Sequence record: NC_055781.1
Length of the DNA stretch: 64,000 bases
Source of the DNA: Escherichia phage p000v
Reading direction: 5' to 3' (one strand)
The position numbers and the translations under genes were made by a program. The stretch's first letter is position 1, and each line of letters begins with the position of its first letter. The notes under the pieces were generated by a model. That model was not told where the DNA came from. It worked only from the letters and a program-made list of their open reading frames with translations, and made no database searches. This document shows positions 2,884-35,775 of this stretch, piece by piece.

Positions 2884-3879
2884 ATGAGCATTACATCTGA
2901 TGCGGTAAAACATGAAATTAACGGTTTATGTGCTTCACAGATTAAAGTGTGGTTTAAAGACCATAACGATCGCAGAGCACTTAATTATGAGCAAATTGCT
3001 ATCCAAGTTCATCAATTACTGACTAGTAAATTTGATTTTCATATGCCGTCTGAAATCTATACTAATCTGCCGCGAGCACTTATTAAAGCGTGTAAAGGTT
3101 ATGGAAAATCAATGGCTGACGGAATCTTCAGCGCGCTGAATAAACTTAACGTTCTGTCGATGATTAACTCTAACAATATCCTGCGTAATCTAGGACGTAC
3201 TGATTTGTTCGGTCGTGAACAGTGTAAAATGCCTTTGAAATGGATTGTTGCTCATCTTAACGAGAACCAAACACGTTTTATGGCCGTAACAGCACGTTTA
3301 CAAATGGGCCTAGATCGTCAGATGAACTTTAAAACTCATCCACGTTATTCAGGTTCAACAGACTTTTATAAATGTGAGCTTCAAAAGGTTGGTGGTAAAA
3401 CTGTCTTAGTAGTTCGTGTAACGTTTGAAGGACGACGTCAAGGATATTTTGACATAATCGGCTCTGGTCTTAAACATTGTGGATTTATCGACGAAGTTGA
3501 TATCAAGCGAGACGGCATTGGATACCGTATTGGGTATGTTTGTACTCTTAAAGAAGAGATTTCAGGACCAGCTCCAGGACTAAAAGACGTTAGATATAAA
3601 GACGAGCTCGTTGAAGAAATAAAAGAAGTTGAATATGATATCAACCAAGAAGATGCTCTTAAAGACCTTATTGATGAACTGAACCAAGATGTTATTCCTG
3701 TTCAGAAATTTGAATCAAAACATGCTGAGCAAATCAAATACTTTGAAGCTTTGATTAACGAACTTAATGTAACTATTCAACAGACTGACGATGAAATCTC
3801 ACGATTAGCAGGCTTAAACGGTAAAAATAAAACAGAACGAGCTAATCTTATTCAAGTAGTAAAACTTCTTAAGGAATGA
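2884..3879 (+). CDS. hypothetical protein with C-terminal coiled-coil-like region
   Basis: ORF track 331 aa; RBS GAGGAAA. Confidence 0.55.
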   Translation: MSITSDAVKHEINGLCASQIKVWFKDHNDRRALNYEQIAIQVHQLLTSKFDFHMPSEIYTNLPRALIKACKGYGKSMADGIFSALNKLNVLSMINSNNILRNLGRTDLFGREQCKMPLKWIVAHLNENQTRFMAVTARLQMGLDRQMNFKTHPRYSGSTDFYKCELQKVGGKTVLVVRVTFEGRRQGYFDIIGSGLKHCGFIDEVDIKRDGIGYRIGYVCTLKEEISGPAPGLKDVRYKDELVEEIKEVEYDINQEDALKDLIDELNQDVIPVQKFESKHAEQIKYFEALINELNVTIQQTDDEISRLAGLNGKNKTERANLIQVVKLLKE

Positions 3880-3925
3880 TGTACAACCAAGGATGGTTGG
3901 AGTATAATGAATCTATCTTAACTAG
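3877..3925 (+). repeat. repeated early-promoter cassette (copy 1 of CAACCAAGGATGGTTGGAGTATAAT...CTATCTTAAC)
   Basis: Near-identical copy at 45146-45190 and a diverged copy at 45701-45730. Confidence 0.6.
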
Positions 3926-3936
3926 AGGAAAATATT

Positions 3937-7278: not shown

Positions 7279-7752
7279 ATGTTATTATCTGGCAAATTAT
7301 ACAAAGAAGAAAAACAAAAATTTTATGATGCACAGAACGGTAAGTGTCCTATTTGCCACCGTGAATTAGACCCTGATGTTCAAGGTAACCATCTTGACCA
7401 CGACCACGAGTTAAACGGGCCAAAAGCCGGTAGAGTTCGTGGATTACTCTGTAATCTGTGCAACGCAGCAGAAGGCCAAATGAAGCATAAGTTCAACCGT
7501 TCTGGTCTTAAAGGTCAAAACGTTGATTACCTCGAATGGCTTGAAGCTCTTCTTGCTTATTTGAAACAAGATTATTCTGATAATAATATCCATCCTAATT
7601 TTGTTCCAGACAAAACTAAAGAGTTCTCAAGACTAGGTAAAGAGGAAATGATGGCTGAGATGCTTCAAAGAGGATTTGAATATAATGAATCTGATACTAA
7701 AACACAATTAATAGCTTCATTCAAAAAGCAGCTTAGAAAGAGTTTAAAATGA
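7279..7752 (+). CDS. 49: endonuclease VII (Holliday junction resolvase)
   Basis: 157 aa; near-identical to recalled T4 gp49 (MLL.GKLYKEEKQKFYDAQNGKC.IC..EL.PDVQ.NHLDHDHELNGPKAG). Confidence 0.9.
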   Translation: MLLSGKLYKEEKQKFYDAQNGKCPICHRELDPDVQGNHLDHDHELNGPKAGRVRGLLCNLCNAAEGQMKHKFNRSGLKGQNVDYLEWLEALLAYLKQDYSDNNIHPNFVPDKTKEFSRLGKEEMMAEMLQRGFEYNESDTKTQLIASFKKQLRKSLK

Positions 7753-21643: not shown

Positions 21644-24355
21644 ATGAAAGAATTTTACTTAACGGTTGAACAGATTGGTGATTCAATTTTTGAACGTTAC
21701 ATCGATTCTAATGGCCGTGAACGTACTCGTGAAGTAGAATATAAACCATCACTGTTTGCTCATTGTCCGGAAAGTCAGGCTACGAAATATTTTGATATCT
21801 ACGGTAAGCCGTGTACTCGTAAACTATTCGCTAACATGCGTGATGCGTCTCAATGGATTAAACGCATGGAAGATATCGGACTTGAAGCACTTGGCATGGA
21901 CGATTTCAAATTAGCGTATTTGTCTGACACTTATAACTATGAAATCAAATACGACCATACAAAAATTCGTGTGGCTAACTTCGACATCGAAGTAACATCT
22001 CCGGATGGGTTCCCTGAGCCGTCACAAGCAAAACATCCTATTGATGCTATCACCCATTATGACTCAATTGACGACAGGTTCTACGTATTTGATCTATTGA
22101 ATTCTCCATATGGTAATGTAGAAGAATGGTCTATTGAAATCGCTGCTAAGCTTCAAGAACAAGGTGGTGATGAAGTTCCATCTGAAATTATCGATAAAAT
22201 CATTTATATGCCGTTCGATAACGAAAAAGAATTGTTGATGGAATATCTCAACTTCTGGCAACAGAAAACTCCTGTCATTTTGACTGGATGGAACGTTGAG
22301 TCATTTGATATTCCATATGTGTATAACAGAATCAAGAATATTTTTGGCGAATCTACTGCGAAACGTTTATCACCACATCGTAAAACTCGTGTTAAAGTTA
22401 TCGAAAACATGTATGGTTCTCGTGAAATCATTACATTGTTCGGTATCTCTGTTCTTGATTACATTGACCTTTACAAAAAATTCTCTTTTACCAATCAACC
22501 GTCGTATTCTCTGGATTACATTTCAGAATTTGAATTGAACGTTGGTAAACTGAAATATGACGGCCCTATTTCTAAGCTTCGTGAAAGCAATCACCAACGA
22601 TATATTTCTTATAACATCATCGACGTGTATCGTGTATTGCAAATTGATGCTAAGCGCCAGTTCATCAACTTGAGTTTGGACATGGGTTATTATGCTAAGA
22701 TACAGATTCAATCTGTGTTCAGCCCAATTAAAACATGGGATGCTATTATTTTTAATAGCCTTAAAGAGCAGAACAAGGTGATTCCACAAGGTCGTTCTCA
22801 CCCGGTTCAACCTTATCCTGGCGCTTTTGTTAAGGAACCTATTCCAAATCGATACAAATATGTAATGAGTTTCGACCTTACATCTCTGTATCCAAGTATT
22901 ATTCGCCAAGTGAATATTAGCCCAGAAACAATAGCAGGAACGTTTAAAGTAGCTCCATTGCATGATTATATTAACGCAATCGCTGAACGTCCTTCAGATG
23001 TGTACAGCTGCTCTCCTAATGGCATGATGTATTATAAAGACCGTGATGGTGTAGTTCCAACTGAAATCACTAAGGTCTTTAATCAACGTAAAGAACATAA
23101 AGGTTACATGCTTGCAGCTCAACGTAATGGTGAAATAATTAAAGAGGCATTGCATAATCCTAATCTTTCTGTTGACGAACCATTAGATGTTGATTATCGT
23201 TTCGACTTCACTGATGAGATTAAAGAAAAGATTAAAAAGTTGTCTGCTAAATCTCTTAATGAAATGTTGTTCAGAGCTCAACGTACTGAAGTTGCAGGTA
23301 TGACTGCACAAATTAACCGTAAATTGCTTATCAACTCACTTTATGGTGCACTTGGAAACGTTTGGTTCCGTTATTACGATTTGCGTAATGCAACTGCAAT
23401 CACAACATTTGGTCAAATGGCTTTACAGTGGATTGAACGTAAAGTTAATGAATATCTGAATGAAGTTTGTGGTACAGAAGGTGAAGCTTTCGTTCTTTAT
23501 GGTGATACAGACTCTATTTACGTATCTGCAGATAAAATTATTGATAAGGTTGGTGAATCTAAATTCCGTGATACCAACCATTGGGTGGACTTTTTAGATA
23601 AGTTTGCACGTGAACGTATGGAACCGGCTATTGATAGAGGTTTCCGTGAAATGTGTGAATACATGAACAATAAACAACACTTAATGTTCATGGACCGAGA
23701 AGCTATCGCTGGTCCTCCGCTCGGTTCTAAAGGTATTGGTGGATTCTGGACTGGTAAGAAACGTTATGCATTAAACGTGTGGGATATGGAAGGTACTCGT
23801 TACGCTGAGCCTAAACTCAAAATCATGGGTCTAGAGACTCAGAAATCTTCGACCCCTAAAGCAGTACAGAAAGCTCTTAAAGAATGTATTCGTCGTATGC
23901 TTCAAGAAGGTGAAGAATCATTACAAGAATATTTTAAAGAGTTTGAAAAAGAATTCCGTCAATTGAATTATATTAGCATCGCGTCGGTATCTTCTGCGAA
24001 TAACATTGCTAAATATGACGTTGGTGGATTCCCTGGTCCTAAATGCCCGTTCCATATTCGTGGAATTCTGACATATAACAGAGCTATCAAAGGTAATATT
24101 GATGCTCCACAAGTTGTAGAAGGCGAAAAGGTATACGTTCTGCCTTTACGTGATGGAAACCCGTTCGGTGATAAATGTATCGCATGGCCTTCTGGTACTG
24201 AAATCACAGATTTAATTAAAGACGACGTACTTCATTGGATGGACTACACTGTTCTCCTTGAGAAGACATTTATTAAACCACTTGAAGGATTCACATCAGC
24301 AGCGAAACTCGATTACGAGAAGAAAGCATCTCTGTTCGATATGTTCGATTTTTGA
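21644..24355 (+). CDS. 43: DNA polymerase gp43 (family B)
   Basis: 903 aa; exo motifs FDIE, polymerase motifs DLTSLYPSII and YGDTDS; N-terminus MKEFYLTVEQIGDSIFERYIDSNGRERTRE matches my recollection of RB69 gp43. Confidence 0.97.
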   Translation: MKEFYLTVEQIGDSIFERYIDSNGRERTREVEYKPSLFAHCPESQATKYFDIYGKPCTRKLFANMRDASQWIKRMEDIGLEALGMDDFKLAYLSDTYNYEIKYDHTKIRVANFDIEVTSPDGFPEPSQAKHPIDAITHYDSIDDRFYVFDLLNSPYGNVEEWSIEIAAKLQEQGGDEVPSEIIDKIIYMPFDNEKELLMEYLNFWQQKTPVILTGWNVESFDIPYVYNRIKNIFGESTAKRLSPHRKTRVKVIENMYGSREIITLFGISVLDYIDLYKKFSFTNQPSYSLDYISEFELNVGKLKYDGPISKLRESNHQRYISYNIIDVYRVLQIDAKRQFINLSLDMGYYAKIQIQSVFSPIKTWDAIIFNSLKEQNKVIPQGRSHPVQPYPGAFVKEPIPNRYKYVMSFDLTSLYPSIIRQVNISPETIAGTFKVAPLHDYINAIAERPSDVYSCSPNGMMYYKDRDGVVPTEITKVFNQRKEHKGYMLAAQRNGEIIKEALHNPNLSVDEPLDVDYRFDFTDEIKEKIKKLSAKSLNEMLFRAQRTEVAGMTAQINRKLLINSLYGALGNVWFRYYDLRNATAITTFGQMALQWIERKVNEYLNEVCGTEGEAFVLYGDTDSIYVSADKIIDKVGESKFRDTNHWVDFLDKFARERMEPAIDRGFREMCEYMNNKQHLMFMDREAIAGPPLGSKGIGGFWTGKKRYALNVWDMEGTRYAEPKLKIMGLETQKSSTPKAVQKALKECIRRMLQEGEESLQEYFKEFEKEFRQLNYISIASVSSANNIAKYDVGGFPGPKCPFHIRGILTYNRAIKGNIDAPQVVEGEKVYVLPLRDGNPFGDKCIAWPSGTEITDLIKDDVLHWMDYTVLLEKTFIKPLEGFTSAAKLDYEKKASLFDMFDF

Positions 24356-24395
24356 TATAATGCCATGGACGGTAAACTAATTAAATGAGAGAAAT

Positions 24396-25031
24396 ATGAA
24401 AACTACACCAATCACTATCGCTATTGACGCAATCGTAAAACAAGCTTCATCTCTTGCCACTATGGCTAAAGTAATTAGTCAAAACTCTGCCCGATATAAT
24501 GCTATTCTTGAAACTCTTCGTCGCCCTGGACTGAGTAATTATGAAAGCCGAGTAATTATTACAGGTGTTGGTAAGAACGCTAATATCGCAACTAAAGCTT
24601 CCGAGACTTTTGCTTCACTAGGTATTCCTAGCATGTATTTGAACACCGGGCATTATTCTCATGGCGACGCAGGATTTATTGCACCTAATGATGTATTAGT
24701 TCACATCAGTCGTTCTGGTAAGACTGAAGAAATGATAGGTGTTGCTAAACATCTTCGTATGATTCGTCCTCAGGTTAAACAGATTCTGTTACATTGTAAC
24801 CCTGACATTCCGCAAGAATACGAAGCTCTTTTTGATTATACGTTCTGTACAGGCATCGCGGTAGAGGTTGATGAGAATTCTCTGGCTCCGACCATGTCCA
24901 CTACATTGTTGTTAGCGCTTATCGATACGTTTGCTATCAACCTTTCGTCTGAACGTGGATTTACCTCTAATGACTTCCTTAAGTTCCACCCTGGTGGTGC
25001 ACTAGGTGCCATGTTACGAGGCGAACAATGA
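24396..25031 (+). CDS. SIS-domain sugar-phosphate isomerase, KdsD/KpsF-like arabinose-5-phosphate isomerase without CBS domains
   Basis: ITGVGKNANIATKASETFASLGIPS, SHGDAGFIAPNDVLVHISRSGKTEE and HPGGALG resemble the API SIS domain. Confidence 0.8.
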   Translation: MKTTPITIAIDAIVKQASSLATMAKVISQNSARYNAILETLRRPGLSNYESRVIITGVGKNANIATKASETFASLGIPSMYLNTGHYSHGDAGFIAPNDVLVHISRSGKTEEMIGVAKHLRMIRPQVKQILLHCNPDIPQEYEALFDYTFCTGIAVEVDENSLAPTMSTTLLLALIDTFAINLSSERGFTSNDFLKFHPGGALGAMLRGEQ

Positions 25032-25171
25032 AAGCAATAACAATAGGACTTTTACTATTGATGCTTGTCATGACTATCTACTGGAGCTTAACGGCTCCAG
25101 TAATGATTCCGACTCTTATAATCGGATGGATTATGATTGGACTACAAGCAAAGTATGAATGCTTTAACTAG
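25028..25171 (+). CDS. small hydrophobic peptide (47 aa, two predicted TM helices)
   Basis: ATGA overlap with upstream stop; below ORF-track size cutoff. Confidence 0.35.
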   Translation: MKAITIGLLLLMLVMTIYWSLTAPVMIPTLIIGWIMIGLQAKYECFN

Positions 25172-25184
25172 AATAGTGTACAAT
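25158..25184 (+). promoter_or_regulatory. candidate middle promoter (MotA box TGCTTTA, -10 TACAAT)
   Basis: TGCTTTA at 25160-25166, 12 nt spacer, TACAAT at 25179-25184. Confidence 0.4.
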
Positions 25185-25212
25185 ACACCTACTTACCAAT
25201 GAGGACTTCAAC

Positions 25213-26898
25213 ATGAAAAAAGCTGTTATTCTTGGTGCTGGACTGGCAACTCGTTTGTATCCAATAACGCACCATATTCCTAAGGTGCTTGTTAACTATA
25301 AACAAGACACTATTCTGAGCAATTTGTATACAATTTATTCTGACCTTGGCGCAGATGAAATTATTGTAGTAGTTCATTCAAAATTTGCTGAAACTGTTCG
25401 AGCTTATTGCGAGCAAGAAGGGTTCAATGTGACTATTCGTACAGTTGATGAAGCGTATGGTTCTGCTTATGCTCTTGCTAAATTATACAAAGATTTAGAT
25501 GGCCATAACGTAATTGTTAACTGGTGTGATATTATTCCTGACTTTGGTTCATGGTCTTGGAATGTTAACGCAATCTATGTTAAGGGTGATGAATGTCGAT
25601 ATAATTTCGATGGTGAAAATATCACTAACGTAGGTTCAACAGGTGGTAATGTTGTAGGAATTTATCAGTTCAAAGACTGGGAATTCTACATGGGTTCTAC
25701 TGATGAGGAAATTCACGAATACTGCAAAGGTCGTGATTTCGTAGAATTCCTTTACGGCAGTGCATTCAATAAATCAGAGCTTATGAATCTAATTGATTTA
25801 GGTGATATGCCTAAACTTGAAAAGGCTCATGAAGTTCGTGAACTGAATCGTAGTTTTAATGCAGTTGAAATTGGCGAAGAAACTGTAACTAAATTCGCGT
25901 TAACCGAACAAGGTCGAGCTCTTCAAAAAGATGAGATTTCATGGTATTTGAAAGTGAAATCAGATTCAGTTCCTCAGTTAGTTTCGGTAAATGAAAATAA
26001 TTTTGAAATGGAACGTATTAAAGGTAAGCCGGCATTTGAATATATTAAATCCAAATCAAGTCTTGCTCGTCCACAAATTGTTGATGCAATTTTAGATGCA
26101 CTGAAATTCAGCACGGACACTTATTTTGTAAGTCCTGAAACTGTTCGCCGTGATTTCACTAAAGAGTTCTATACGAAAGTTATTGATCGTTGTGAAAGCA
26201 TTCAGCCATTGATTGATTCATTTGGTAAAATCACACGTGTGAACTACACTAAGATTGGACGTCTGAAGCCAATGTTGAAACAAGCTTTAGAACATCTTAT
26301 TCGTTATCATAACCGTTCTCAGGGACAGTACTCTGTTATTCATGGTGACCCGAACTTCAGTAATACTATGATTACCGATAACGGCGAAGTCAAGTTTATC
26401 GACCCTCGTGGATATTTTGGTGAAACCAAGATTTACGGGCCAAAATTGTATGATGAAGCTAAAGTGCTTTATGCTGTTTCAGGTTATGATGAATTCAATG
26501 CTAATCCGACCTGGGGTCAGTTTACTATTGATGAAACAACTTGTAATGTGACTATTAACATCAATCCATTAGTTTACAAATATGGAAAGATGAGTTCGTT
26601 TAACGAGTATCATCATTTGGCAGTAGCAATTATCTGGATTGCATTAGGTGGTTATTTCAAGAATAATCCACTTAAAGCGGTTGCCGCATATTATAAAGGT
26701 ATGGAACTTCTGACTAAGCAATTACGTAACATGGGCCGTGTACTTCAAGACGGCTCTATTAGTTATGACGTAGCAGAACCTGTAACGGCTACTCTGATTA
26801 CAAAAAATCCTGGTAAATGGGTACTAACTGATAAAGAAACTGGTGTTTCCTATCGTCCAATCGGCGGCGATATCACTCATCAATGGGAACGAATCTAA
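25213..26898 (+). CDS. bifunctional sugar-1-phosphate nucleotidyltransferase / APH-like sugar kinase
   Basis: N-terminus ILGAGLATRLYPITHHIPKVLV is an NTP-transferase signature; C-terminal HGDPNFSNTMITDNGEVKFIDPRGYFG is an APH/choline-kinase catalytic motif. Confidence 0.8.
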   Translation: MKKAVILGAGLATRLYPITHHIPKVLVNYKQDTILSNLYTIYSDLGADEIIVVVHSKFAETVRAYCEQEGFNVTIRTVDEAYGSAYALAKLYKDLDGHNVIVNWCDIIPDFGSWSWNVNAIYVKGDECRYNFDGENITNVGSTGGNVVGIYQFKDWEFYMGSTDEEIHEYCKGRDFVEFLYGSAFNKSELMNLIDLGDMPKLEKAHEVRELNRSFNAVEIGEETVTKFALTEQGRALQKDEISWYLKVKSDSVPQLVSVNENNFEMERIKGKPAFEYIKSKSSLARPQIVDAILDALKFSTDTYFVSPETVRRDFTKEFYTKVIDRCESIQPLIDSFGKITRVNYTKIGRLKPMLKQALEHLIRYHNRSQGQYSVIHGDPNFSNTMITDNGEVKFIDPRGYFGETKIYGPKLYDEAKVLYAVSGYDEFNANPTWGQFTIDETTCNVTININPLVYKYGKMSSFNEYHHLAVAIIWIALGGYFKNNPLKAVAAYYKGMELLTKQLRNMGRVLQDGSISYDVAEPVTATLITKNPGKWVLTDKETGVSYRPIGGDITHQWERI

Positions 26899-27284
26899 TG
26901 CACCGTGTAGAAAACATGCTTAATCTTTGTTTTGATGTCGATGATTGTATAACAGAGTGGAATAACAATCGTGATTACGTGAACTTCAAACCAGACGTCG
27001 AAATGGTGTCTGCCATTAATGCCCTGTATGATGCAGGGCATACCATAACGCTTTACACTGCCCGTGGTATGAAGTCGGTAGGTCCTGGTCGTATAGCAAT
27101 TGACATTCTCCCAAGTCTGATTCAGAACTTGGAAAACATTGGTTTGAAGTACCATAATTTGCTAACACATAAACCAGTATATGATTGGATTATCGACGAC
27201 AAAGCTATGCGTCCTGACGAATTCAAAGCTCTTATGAATAAAGGCGAATTCGAAACATTTAAATCATATAAACCAAATCTATAA
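26883..27284 (+). CDS. HAD-superfamily phosphatase (small, capless)
   Basis: Motif I FDVDDCIT, motif II TLYTAR, motif III/IV K..(n)..IIDDKA; alternative ATG at 26898. Confidence 0.7.
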   Translation: MGTNLMHRVENMLNLCFDVDDCITEWNNNRDYVNFKPDVEMVSAINALYDAGHTITLYTARGMKSVGPGRIAIDILPSLIQNLENIGLKYHNLLTHKPVYDWIIDDKAMRPDEFKALMNKGEFETFKSYKPNL

Positions 27285-27341: not shown

Positions 27342-28502
27342 ATGAATACTTTTAAAATCGGAACGAATTTTGATTTAGCTCTTCTTGATAAAATCGTAGA
27401 GCTCAATAAAACCTATCCTAATAGCTTGATAAACGAAGTATATGGCTCTACAAGAGAAATGGCTTTTGTAGCAGCCAGACCTGATTTTAGGCTTCCTGAC
27501 GTTGACAAAAAGATGTTAGAAGACTACGTTAAACGTTGTAACGAATTAGGTATTTGCTTTAACTATACACTCAACACGATAAATCCTGGTTCAAAAAGAG
27601 AACTAGTTGAGTGGAAGAAGAAAGCTATTCAGGATTATGTTCAGTATCTTTGGTCAATAGGCGTATGGCGTATTACTATCGCTAACCCTGTTGTTATGGA
27701 AATTGTTCGTGAAGTCAATAAAGATATTGAGATTGAAGTTTCAACAATTCTACATGTCGATGCGGTAACTCAAATCAAATACTTACATGACCAATATAAC
27801 ATCAAAAAGGTCTGTTGCGGAATTCATAAGAACCGTTCAGTTTCTTTCCTGAAGCGTGCAGCAGAGTTTTGCAATAAGAACAATATAATATTTGAAGTTC
27901 TTGTAAATGAGTTCTGTTCTAATGCTGGTAAAGGGTATACAACACATTGTAGTTATCGTGACTCTTGCTATATTTTCCATAGTACTGATGTTACCGCTGA
28001 TGATGCTAAATCCTTAAATGGATATCCTATGCAGCACTGTATTAAAGCTCGTGATACAGACCCATTTAACTGGTTGAGAACTCGTTTTGTTCGTCCTCAA
28101 GATTTGAAACTTTATAATGATATTGGTATCACTCAATTCAAAGTTTCAGGACGTACAGGTAGCACAGACTACATTTTGAAAGTTCTTGAAGCATACGCTT
28201 CTGAAAAGTTTGAAGGTAATTTGTTAGAACTGTGGAAGCCTTTAGAGACTATTTTCACTCTTGAAAATGAGACTGAGTTTTCACATACAGTAAATATTGA
28301 AACCTCTTTGTTAGATGGCTTTTTAGAAAAAAGGTGGTTCAGACATCCAGATTTTGATTGTGCTAATGAAATCTGTGGGTCAACGTGTACATATTGTGAA
28401 AGGTATTATAAACGTCAATTATCTAAAAACGGGTTAGCAGAAAACTCCATATCTATTATTGATATAACTAACTCTGATGACGCTTTGAGGTACCCGGAAT
28501 GA
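27342..28502 (+). CDS. Cys-rich protein of unknown function (possible metal or Fe-S enzyme)
   Basis: 386 aa; Cys clusters CC, C-x10-C-x6-C and C-x4-C-x3-C-x2-C; no recognisable family by eye. Confidence 0.6.
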   Translation: MNTFKIGTNFDLALLDKIVELNKTYPNSLINEVYGSTREMAFVAARPDFRLPDVDKKMLEDYVKRCNELGICFNYTLNTINPGSKRELVEWKKKAIQDYVQYLWSIGVWRITIANPVVMEIVREVNKDIEIEVSTILHVDAVTQIKYLHDQYNIKKVCCGIHKNRSVSFLKRAAEFCNKNNIIFEVLVNEFCSNAGKGYTTHCSYRDSCYIFHSTDVTADDAKSLNGYPMQHCIKARDTDPFNWLRTRFVRPQDLKLYNDIGITQFKVSGRTGSTDYILKVLEAYASEKFEGNLLELWKPLETIFTLENETEFSHTVNIETSLLDGFLEKRWFRHPDFDCANEICGSTCTYCERYYKRQLSKNGLAENSISIIDITNSDDALRYPE

Positions 28503-28738
28503 TTTCTAGAAAAAGTTTTAATTATAAACTTAACGAAGAGATTTTGACTATGAAACTGAACACTAACGAACAAATTCTTAAAAAGGCCCTTATGGGCCTG
28601 TTTGAAACCAAAGCGGCTAAAGTGATTAAAGAACCTGTTCAATTGGAATACTACGCTGATGCATTTCTTCATAGTGTTCTTGGAAGTATCGATGCTGAAG
28701 CTTTACGTTATATCAACATTGTCAAGAAATTCAAATAA
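28499..28738 (+). CDS. hypothetical protein
   Basis: ATGA overlap with upstream stop. Confidence 0.4.
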   Translation: MISRKSFNYKLNEEILTMKLNTNEQILKKALMGLFETKAAKVIKEPVQLEYYADAFLHSVLGSIDAEALRYINIVKKFK

Positions 28739-35526: not shown

Positions 35527-35775
35527 ATGGAATTATTCGTGGCTAGTTCAGTAGCAGTTTTAATCGCAGGTATTGGTTCAATCATCATTTACATGTTGCC
35601 TTGGGTAATCGCACTTATTCGTGGCACAAAAAGCACAACAGCAATCTTCTTTGTATCTTTACTCTTTAACTGGACGATGATTGGTTGGATTGGAACTTTA
35701 ATTTGGTCTATCGTTGCCGAAAAGAAATCTGCTCAGCAGACTCAACAAGTAATTATTATTCGCGAAAAAGAATAA
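35527..35775 (+). CDS. membrane protein (two TM segments)
   Basis: Hydrophobic throughout. Confidence 0.5.
   Translation: MELFVASSVAVLIAGIGSIIIYMLPWVIALIRGTKSTTAIFFVSLLFNWTMIGWIGTLIWSIVAEKKSAQQTQQVIIIREKE

Follow-up and report, generated by a model that had tools for sequence, protein, structure and literature searches.

The DNA of phage RB69 carries arabinosylated 5-hydroxycytosine (PMC13326640), and arabinosyl-5-hydroxycytosine DNA has also been reported for NicPhage and other phages (PMC13326640, PMC13390438). The RB69 gene ORF055c was first tied to arabinose by Thomas et al. (PMC6024577), and Lee et al. propose that its product, gp55, makes arabinose-5-phosphate from ribulose-5-phosphate (PMC13326640). 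For the biochemistry from arabinose-5-phosphate onward (AfhE and AfhF of HY126), Lee et al. cite He et al., and the roles of the bifunctional enzyme and of the HAD phosphatase are summarized in the same article (PMC13326640). Bacterial D-arabinose-5-phosphate isomerases (APIs) with one SIS domain and no CBS domains include c3406 of E. coli CFT073 (PDB 5uqi, 198 aa, with arabinose-5-phosphate bound), the API of B. fragilis (3etn, 220 aa), and Listeria lmof2365_0531 (3fxa, 201 aa). The proteins of the T4 gene 42.1 family have 46 to 49 aa and a conserved core, and their gene is found downstream of gene 43 and overlaps the gene before it by 4 nt (ATGA). In T4-like phages, imm is upstream of 42.1, and gene 42 follows within 7 to 10 nt. 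The MotA consensus is (a/t)(a/t)(a/t)TGCTTtA, located 12 ± 1 bp upstream of a -10 element TAtaaT (PMC2988021).

The DNA analyzed here, referred to as the window, is a stretch of 64,000 nucleotides of an RB69-like T-even phage of the genus Mosigvirus (Escherichia phage p000v; NC_055781.1). The isomerase locus is flanked by an RB69-type gene 43 DNA polymerase and is matched at ≥90% identity by 153 phage records, mostly Mosigvirus, many of which already carry the annotation "arabinose 5-phosphate isomerase." NicPhage is 96% identical to the window at this locus. Neither a sigma-70 nor a MotA-type promoter was found just upstream of the isomerase gene (24320–24395), which is probably transcribed by read-through from gene 43. 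The features of the locus are the following:

24396–25031, plus strand: isomerase gene, ATG start, 211 aa (Pfam SIS, NCBIfam, PHROG and RB69 gp55 matches)
25018–25031, plus strand: coupling junction, composed of GAGG (25018–25021), a 6-nt spacer and ATGA (25028–25031) (sequence reading)
25028–25171, plus strand: gene 42.1-family ORF (RB69 ORF054c), ATG start, 47 aa (PHROG 3610, tblastn)
25160–25184, plus strand: predicted MotA/AsiA middle promoter of the next gene (pattern match, enrichment, conservation)
25213–26898, plus strand: bifunctional sugar-1-phosphate nucleotidyltransferase (N-terminal)/kinase (C-terminal), 561 aa (Pfam, NCBIfam)
26883–27284, plus strand: HAD-type phosphatase (NCBIfam TIGR01689, RB69 synteny)

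The start of the HAD phosphatase as annotated in relatives corresponds to position 26898.

Sequence comparison and structure modeling identify the 211-aa protein as a KdsD/KpsF-type SIS isomerase with predicted API activity, in agreement with the first-pass annotation of this DNA. RB69 gp55 (ORF055c, NP_861745) and HY126 XAN60481 are likewise 211 aa long and 96 to 97% identical to it. It shares 203 of 211 residues (96%) with gp55, and the two proteins do not differ in substance beyond these eight substitutions. The isomerase matched the Pfam SIS model (9.6e-10, above the Pfam cut-off) and PHROG 5670, "arabinose 5-phosphate isomerase" (2e-116). The top three NCBIfam models were KpsF/GutQ (8.5e-32), KdsD (3.4e-30), and GutQ (2.5e-22), and the fourth-best match had a value of 9e-07. 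These matches are confined to the SIS half of each model (e.g., 47–202 of 328), and because the isomerase spans only this half, its scores do not reach the curated cut-offs (in the case of the KpsF/GutQ subfamily, 110.8 bits with a cut-off of 203.7). BLASTP against E. coli placed the protein on the API side, with 6e-33 for KdsD (35% identity over the SIS domain) and 6e-24 for GutQ, as opposed to 3.2 for GmhA. In a single-sequence PDB search, 3etn, 5uqi, 2xhz, and 3fxa were the sole matches, and the same entries led a profile search (1e-48 to 1e-28), followed by the next family, phosphohexuloisomerase, at 3e-10. The best nine Foldseek matches of the AlphaFold2 model (pLDDT 96.4) were chains of these four structures, with a TM-score to 2xhz of 0.90 (normalised to target length). 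The active site of KdsD, which we take to consist of K59, H88, E111, E152, and H193 (after the mutagenesis and structural studies on which PDB 2xhz is based), aligns with K60, H89, E112, E157, and H198 of the isomerase, and these five residues are invariant in alignments of 9 and 40 sequences.

The SIS fold is common to API, GmhA, phosphohexuloisomerase, GlmS, and RpiR/MurR, and the latter four families (phosphohexuloisomerase as 1jeo and 1vim) appear lower in the Foldseek list, with E values of ~1e-7 to 1e-6. That the protein is an SIS isomerase acting on another substrate, such as GmhA, 6-phospho-3-hexuloisomerase or GlmS, or a non-catalytic, RpiR/MurR-like sensor of sugar phosphates is nonetheless hardly credible. 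A GmhA or GlmS model was not among the NCBIfam matches at 0.01, and the GmhA structures ranked only 41st and 42nd in the Foldseek list (TM-score 0.55), while in the profile search the lead of the API structures amounted to ~20 to 40 orders of magnitude. The isomerase has no DNA-binding domain, and the five KdsD catalytic positions are retained in all 40 homologs. Other SIS specificities were thus rejected on the NCBIfam, BLASTP, PDB profile, and Foldseek results.

The C-terminus of the isomerase is located 8 residues past the HPGGALG motif, whereas KdsD and GutQ run on for ~120 aa (CBS) in the alignment, and the profiles of both are matched only up to position 195–202. The protein does stop, as previously noted, where the CBS domains would start. 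Tandem CBS domains are a criterion for KdsD/GutQ equivalogs but not for API activity; without them, the isomerase is therefore no KdsD/GutQ equivalog and groups with the CBS-less class. The E. coli enzymes KdsD and GutQ share with it the predicted reaction and 35% identity over the SIS domain, but differ in the C-terminal CBS pair and in their pathway context. The idea of a "minimal phage version" did not hold, as APIs with a single SIS domain and without CBS domains are already known from bacteria as a class (3etn, 5uqi, 3fxa). Like the isomerase, these enzymes have ~200 to 220 aa, end soon after HPGGxLG, and possess the catalytic Lys, His, and Glu positions; they are also its best sequence and fold matches (1.8e-48 and 2.8e-45; TM-scores of 0.8 to 0.9). 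However, identity is only ~30 to 40%, and the product is used differently, namely for Kdo or capsule in bacteria and, as predicted, for a nucleotide-sugar for DNA modification in the phage. Among the nearest non-phage cluster representatives, 6 of 10 have at most 250 aa (longest of these, 243), and most of these six stop just past the HPGGxLG motif; the nearest metagenomic representatives possess a C-terminal tail of the same kind as the isomerase. We thus rejected a phage-specific truncation of a KdsD-type gene, because neither the closest relatives from bacteria and metagenomes nor the best solved structures have CBS domains. The phage enzyme is a member of the bacterial CBS-less API class, from which it probably descended. 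The phage isomerases form a clade apart that, at E ≤ 1e-30, comprises no more than 14 cluster representatives. Bacterial genomes were scanned twice: the isomerase sequence by itself gave no match, and an alignment detected two phage-like contigs that are binned as bacteria, along with two 321-aa genes of the ordinary KdsD type.

In RB69 and HY126, the isomerase gene occupies the same place right after gene 43 and is followed by the same genes as in the window. The synteny of this module extends gene for gene to RB69 (gp55 through gp45), mobillu, and HY126. Domain matches between gene 43 and uvsX point to a kinase/nucleotidyltransferase, a HAD phosphatase, a ThyA-like 5-hydroxy-dCMP synthase, and a glycosyltransferase. 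The 561-aa bifunctional enzyme, with a match to Pfam NTP_transferase (1.3e-09), weak kinase-family matches and NCBIfam matches, is orthologous to RB69 gp52:53, and its analog in HY126 is AfhE. The HAD phosphatase matches the NCBIfam model TIGR01689, capsule biosynthesis phosphatase (1.9e-13), and is orthologous to RB69 gp51, with AfhF as its analog. In the predicted pathway, the isomerase would interconvert D-arabinose-5-phosphate and D-ribulose-5-phosphate, the latter supplied by the pentose-phosphate pathway of the host, and this reaction would be the first step toward UDP-arabinofuranose. The bifunctional kinase/uridylyltransferase and the HAD phosphatase would then convert arabinose-5-phosphate via arabinose-1,5-bisphosphate and arabinose-1-phosphate into UDP-arabinofuranose, from which phage glycosyltransferases would attach arabinose to the 5-hydroxycytosine of the phage DNA. 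Arabinosylated DNA would be protected from host nucleases. This context, the supply of UDP-arabinofuranose for arabinosyl-5-hydroxycytosine DNA (PMC6024577, PMC13326640), had been missed by the first-pass annotation, as had the membership of the small ORF in the gene 42.1 family and its independence from the sugar pathway.

KdsD and KpsF, as well as the API of B. fragilis, work in the synthesis of Kdo or capsule, 3etn, the solved structure nearest to the isomerase, has "involved in capsule formation" in its title, and the adjacent HAD gene matches a capsule phosphatase model. The isomerase could accordingly be an auxiliary metabolic gene that provides arabinose-5-phosphate for host Kdo, lipopolysaccharide or capsule instead of DNA modification. 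We consider this very improbable, given that the isomerase gene is the first of a conserved module that also codes for a 5-hydroxy-dCMP synthase, a kinase/uridylyltransferase, a phosphatase, and DNA arabinosyltransferases, that neither a Kdo-8-phosphate synthase nor a CMP-Kdo synthetase is annotated in this module, and that phages of the genus do have arabinosyl-5-hydroxycytosine DNA (PMC13326640, PMC13390438). The complementation of a kdsD gutQ double mutant has been described as an assay (PMC11301363).

Arabinose modification of DNA is thus the preferred role of the module, and the isomerase is an optional, accessory part of it, since the same module is used by related phages that lack the isomerase. 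The bifunctional enzyme is found in 367 phage records as compared to 274 for the isomerase, and the loci of VR5 and kv_tblp2 contain the module but no isomerase gene. E. coli already makes arabinose-5-phosphate by means of KdsD and GutQ, so that a phage copy might not be required. We infer that the isomerase is a booster of the module that acts on flux, a reading that is our own.

The isomerase stop codon TGA (25029–25031) overlaps the ATG (25028–25030) of the 47-aa ORF as ATGA, just as initially described, and GAGG precedes this start by 6 nt. The 47-aa product is hydrophobic (GRAVY 1.37), with hydrophobic stretches at residues ~3–21 and 25–41 that are parted by T-A-P..I-P-T. The two hydrophobic segments of the proposed two-helix peptide were thus recovered, but AlphaFold2 predicted one long helix and no hairpin. 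The ORF matched PHROG 3610 over its full length (4.5e-27, positions 1–47 of 47), and tblastn revealed matches in 763 phage records, annotated as gp42.1 in VR7 and RB51. Identity was 57 to 59% to VR7 gp42.1 and to the T2 match, where no feature is annotated, and 60% in a partial match (residues 18–47) to the ORF annotated as 42.1 in RB51. T4 has an intact copy of 42.1, which is not annotated in RefSeq. PF26865 is precomputed for close homologs of the ORF, and a search of the local Pfam copy, which has no PF26865 model, gave no match. A literature search for the function of gp42.1 found nothing.

The 42.1 frame is intact in all 12 loci read (eleven phages and the window), which represent at least 8 genera, and each has kept a start codon preceded by a purine run resembling an SD sequence, with ATGA as the overlap with an upstream gene that is either the isomerase or imm. 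Non-synonymous differences amount to 0.17 to 0.44 per site, as compared to 0.55 to 0.98 for synonymous differences (saturated), and the motif P-x-M-I-P-T-(L/I)-I..W...Q-x-K-(Y/F)-x-C-(F/I)-N is conserved through differing codons. These sequence data identify the 47-aa ORF as a member of the T4 gene 42.1 family, a T-even backbone gene under purifying selection, and the view that it is a real, conserved gene was borne out. The protein would be a small hydrophobic membrane protein, translated by coupling to whichever gene is located upstream. The window differs from T4 in that the isomerase is upstream of 42.1, imm is located elsewhere, and 42.1 is followed by a promoter-containing spacer of 41 nt.

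Several observations could suggest that the ORF is no gene and that the stretch is a conserved regulatory or intercistronic DNA or RNA element, such as a promoter or a ribosome-loading region: T4 RefSeq lacks an annotation here, the RB69 record names the stretch "T4 42-imm intercistronic region," a promoter element is present at the 3' end, and the local Pfam gave no match. Such an element is most unlikely in view of the conservation of frame, start, SD-like run, and ATGA across the twelve loci, of the saturation of synonymous but not of non-synonymous sites, and of a protein motif that is kept with differing codons and has its own PHROG and PF26865. Two other candidates were rejected. The 42.1 gene is not part of the arabinose module, as it adjoins imm in the module-less phages T4, RB51, VR7, and P896, and is missing from the module of Acinetobacter phage DLP1 and from L015. 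Neither is it a truncated Imm, since the window contains a separate imm at 35527–35775, ~10 kb from the isomerase/42.1 junction, and the sole tblastn match of an Imm query inside 42.1 was a chance-level one of 10 residues (E 9.1).

A MotA-box promoter had been proposed for the next gene, and the consensus elements of such a middle promoter, TGCTTTA (25160–25166; extended reading gaaTGCTTTA from 25157), a 12-nt spacer and TACAAT (25179–25184) are indeed present. Patterns of this type occur 14 times in the window, with 1.74 expected by chance. The location of the promoter inside the small ORF proved right for the MotA box, which corresponds to the last three codons of 42.1 (C45-F46-N47), but not for the -10 hexamer, which is in the intergenic spacer. 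The box, the spacer length, and TACAAT are kept in TG1, PEi20, and X20 (four genera). The predicted site fits the MotA/AsiA middle promoters of T4 in box, 12-bp spacing, and -10 element; unlike these, its box doubles as the Cys-Phe-Asn codons of 42.1. A MotA/AsiA-type middle promoter would thus start the transcription of the bifunctional enzyme gene.

Taken together, homology, fold, catalytic residues, synteny, purifying selection, and promoter conservation argue for a locus composed of a CBS-less API that enters the UDP-arabinofuranose route, the backbone gene 42.1, and a MotA middle promoter, and we assign a probability of roughly 85% to this explanation.

How the junction arose can be addressed only tentatively, and the following scenario as a whole is rather doubtful. 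The small 42.1 protein may be autonomous and reside in the inner membrane, with an expression that relies on ribosomes arriving from the preceding gene. In Mosigvirus, Tegunavirus, Kanagawavirus, and Winklervirus, the isomerase may have entered the genome by replacing imm precisely at the ATGA, with imm moving elsewhere. Simultaneously, a single synonymous Cys change (TGT to TGC) in the conserved C-terminal E-C-F-N may have made the MotA box, which may have given the arabinose-activation genes a new middle promoter.

The isomerase and the arabinose pathway have already been published (2018 to 2026), and the isomerase finding therefore does not represent a new system. Our additions are modest: the membership of the isomerase in the CBS-less API class, its optional status in the module, and the recognition of the small ORF as the widely conserved, largely unannotated gene 42.1, whose C-terminal coding part doubles as a conserved promoter. 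Gene 42.1 is present in hundreds of T-even phages but absent from the T4 reference annotation, and if it had a defined role, such as in superinfection exclusion or membrane-linked DNA modification, this would be new biology. For the phage, the isomerase would be the entry to a pathway that uses the host pentose-phosphate pool (ribulose-5-phosphate) to coat DNA with arabinose. This modification alters the sensitivity to restriction and to further systems of defence against phages, and it is therefore relevant to phage therapy strains of the genus.

By every computational test available, the 211-aa protein is predicted to be an arabinose-5-phosphate isomerase (API) of the KdsD/KpsF type, as the first-pass annotation had proposed from its motifs. 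All of the elements noted earlier were confirmed at their positions, and the features discussed are the following.

24396-25031, + strand: isomerase, ORF of 211 aa
25028-25171, + strand: small ORF (gene 42.1), 47 aa
35097-35465, + strand: imm.1-like lipoprotein gene, with an early-type promoter of its own
35527-35775, + strand: imm (Pfam Imm_superinfect, 1.4e-15), with an early-type promoter of its own

The isomerase contains one Pfam SIS (sugar isomerase) domain, and its best NCBIfam models, namely, KpsF/GutQ (8.5e-32), KdsD (3.4e-30), and GutQ (2.5e-22), aligned over the SIS half only; no GmhA or GlmS model was among the NCBIfam matches. PHROG 5670, 'arabinose 5-phosphate isomerase', matched with 2e-116. 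The BLASTP comparison suggested earlier for separating API from phosphoheptose isomerase pointed to API, with 35% identity to E. coli KdsD (6e-33), a match to GutQ (6e-24), and none to GmhA (E 3.2). A single-sequence search of solved structures returned four API structures only, and a 40-sequence profile retrieved 5uqi (1.8e-48), 3etn (2.8e-45), 2xhz (2.7e-39), and 3fxa (2.1e-28), followed by phosphohexuloisomerase as the next family (3e-10). The top nine Foldseek matches of the AlphaFold2 model (pLDDT 96.4, pTM 0.91) were chains of the same four entries, including 'c3406 in complex with A5P', whereas GmhA ranked 41st. Residues K60, H89, E112, E157, and H198, invariant in both isomerase alignments, align to K59, H88, E111, E152, and H193, which we take to be the KdsD active-site set. 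API profiles and structures ranked first in all searches; the outcome that would have refuted the earlier proposal, with GmhA, GlmS, or some other SIS family as the best match, was therefore not obtained.

The isomerase ends 8 residues past HPGGALG, where KdsD and GutQ run on for ~120 aa of CBS domains, so that the alignment confirms the absence of the CBS pair. However, its earlier interpretation as a minimal phage version did not hold, because the CBS-less form is not phage specific. The three best solved relatives are also single-SIS proteins, of 198 to 220 aa, and the Bacteroides fragilis API was the positive control in the complementation of an E. coli kdsD gutQ double mutant (PMC11301363). 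When 1.84 billion cluster representatives were searched exhaustively, the phage-type clade proved small (14 representatives at E <= 1e-30). Among the 10 closest representatives outside it, 6 were at most 250 aa long, as were 33 of the following 136, and many of these stop 8 to 20 residues past HPGGxLG, like the phage protein. The phage gene was therefore most likely derived from a bacterial API that already lacked CBS domains.

The 1-kb stretch around the isomerase and the small ORF matched 153 phage records at >=90% identity, four of them at >=99%. Most belong to Mosigvirus, the RB69-like T-even phages that infect E. coli and Shigella, and the ORF is labeled 'arabinose 5-phosphate isomerase' in many of the records. 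Directly 5' lies the RB69-type gene 43 DNA polymerase (21644-24355, 903 aa). The gene order in the window is, gene for gene, that of phages mobillu, HY126, and RB69: 45, 44, 62, regA, 43, isomerase, small ORF, 'GlmU-like' bifunctional protein, HAD phosphatase, U32-like, ThyA-like, glycosyltransferase, kinase, and uvsX. The module also includes a 79-aa ORF (28499-28738, + strand), an ortholog of RB69p049 that overlaps the stop of the U32-like gene by 4 nt and had no match in a Pfam search.

This arabinosyl-5-hydroxycytosine context had been missed by the first-pass annotation. Arabinose on RB69 DNA was found by Thomas et al., who named ORF055c, the RB69 isomerase gene, and ORF53_52c as candidates for UDP-arabinose synthesis (PMC6024577). 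Lee et al. showed the modified base to be mono- or di-arabinosylated 5-hydroxycytosine and proposed that gp55 diverts ribulose-5-phosphate to arabinofuranose-5-phosphate; in their summary of He et al. 2026, two enzymes were shown in HY126, where AfhF, analogous to gp51, is a Mg-dependent phosphatase that takes off the 5-phosphate (PMC13326640). The isomerase shares 96% identity with RB69 gp55 and 97% with its ortholog in HY126, and NicPhage, a Mosigvirus with 96% identity over this locus, has the same DNA modification (PMC13390438). In the accessible literature, no assay of the phage enzyme's own activity was found, and its pathway step is predicted from homology. The central points on the isomerase and its context are already annotated or published; the few new details are its optional status, the under-annotation of gene 42.1, the replacement of imm by the isomerase exactly at the 42.1 junction, and the MotA box formed by conserved codons.

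The isomerase is optional in the arabinose module. Homologs of the bifunctional enzyme were present in 367 phage records versus 274 for the isomerase, with Klebsiella phages accounting for 25 of the former and at most 3 of the latter. The module loci of Dhakavirus VR5 and Klebsiella phage kv_tblp2 carry the bifunctional enzyme, HAD phosphatase, kinase, ThyA-like gene, and glycosyltransferase, and no SIS gene was found at either locus. Such loci fit a booster role rather than a strictly required step, in which the isomerase would increase the arabinose-5-phosphate supply beyond that of host KdsD and GutQ; the VR5 and kv_tblp2 lineages presumably rely on host API or use another sugar. Two entries of a species-representative collection filed as bacterial genomes or MAGs resemble T4-type phage DNA: CAVJPU010000002.1 (167 kb), with an isomerase 61% identical to that of the window, and JBHIVS010000185.1 (5.2 kb), with the bifunctional enzyme gene directly 3' of the isomerase gene.

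The small ORF, whose identity had also gone unrecognized, is gene 42.1, a real protein-coding backbone gene of Tevenvirinae. It matched PHROG 3610 over its full length (4.5e-27), its family is in precomputed Pfam (PF26865), and tblastn retrieved 763 phage records, far above the number for the isomerase, including T2, RB5, RB51, and VR7, the last two labeled gp42.1. T4 carries an intact 49-aa copy (NC_000866.4, 3728-3877, minus strand) unannotated in RefSeq, VR5 a likewise intact and unannotated copy (3790-3930), and RB69p054 (7324-7434), noted as 'similar to T4 42-imm intercistronic region', is annotated only from the internal Met12 (36 instead of 47 aa). Across genera, synonymous differences were saturated (0.55 to 0.98 per site) versus 0.17 to 0.44 for nonsynonymous ones, with ratios, where computable, of 0.08 to 0.54, and the core P-x-M-I-P-T-(L/I)-I..W...Q-x-K-(Y/F)-x-C-(F/I)-N was conserved. 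A role as an arabinose-pathway component was rejected, as the bifunctional gene follows the isomerase gene without an intervening small ORF in the module of an Acinetobacter phage and in a metagenomic relative. The predicted two-helix form is plausible but unproven: hydropathy gives two hydrophobic stretches with a Pro-rich turn between them, whereas AlphaFold2, with a shallow alignment, gives one continuous helix (pLDDT 86, pTM 0.42). We found no literature on the function of 42.1.

Gene 42.1 is translationally coupled to whichever gene precedes it. The ATGA overlap noted earlier is present at 25028-25031, with GAGG 6 nt upstream, and recurred in all 12 loci read (eleven phages and the window). 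In T4, RB51, VR7, P896, and VR5, 42.1 is preceded by imm, whereas in Mosigvirus (window, mobillu, HY126, and RB69), TG1, PEi20, X20, and PM2 it is preceded by the isomerase. In the window, imm.1 and imm lie ~10 kb downstream of 42.1, preceded by early-type promoters (GTTTAC...TA..AT). In this lineage, imm and 42.1 have therefore become separated, and the isomerase occupies the place of imm.

The pattern TGCTT(T/C)A-N11-13-TANNNT was located at 25160-25184 and fits the published MotA consensus, (a/t)(a/t)(a/t)TGCTTtA at 12 +/- 1 bp from TAtaaT (PMC2988021). The promoter had been placed inside the small ORF; this applies to the MotA box, which forms codons Cys45-Phe46-Asn47, but not to the -10 element TACAAT (25179-25184), which is in the 41-nt spacer ahead of the bifunctional gene (ATG 25213, SD GAGGA 25201-25205). 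Box, 12-nt spacer, and TACAAT are kept in Mosigvirus, Tegunavirus TG1, Kanagawavirus PEi20, and Winklervirus X20 despite the saturated synonymous divergence of 42.1. In the imm-linked phages T4, RB51, VR7, and P896, the C terminus is nearly the same (E-C-F-N or E-C-I-N), but the Cys codon is TGT, the box position reads TGTTTCA, TGTTTTA, or TGTATCA instead of TGCTTTA, no -10 element was found after 42.1, and the next gene begins 7 to 10 nt past its stop. PM2 also has TGT, and hence no MotA box, and TATAAT 5 nt past the stop. Conservation of the box in arabinose phages and its absence from imm-linked phages suggest that in the former the end of 42.1 doubles as a predicted middle-promoter element for the bifunctional gene. 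No comparable promoter was found upstream of the isomerase gene, which is probably cotranscribed with gene 43. In the window, the pattern of MotA box plus -10 element occurred at 14 sites, among them 7661, 14956, 17649, 30336, 40044, and 48548, versus 1.74 expected from shuffles. This approximately eightfold enrichment makes it clear that promoters of this class are used by the phage, and the 14 sites provide a ready list of its candidate middle promoters.
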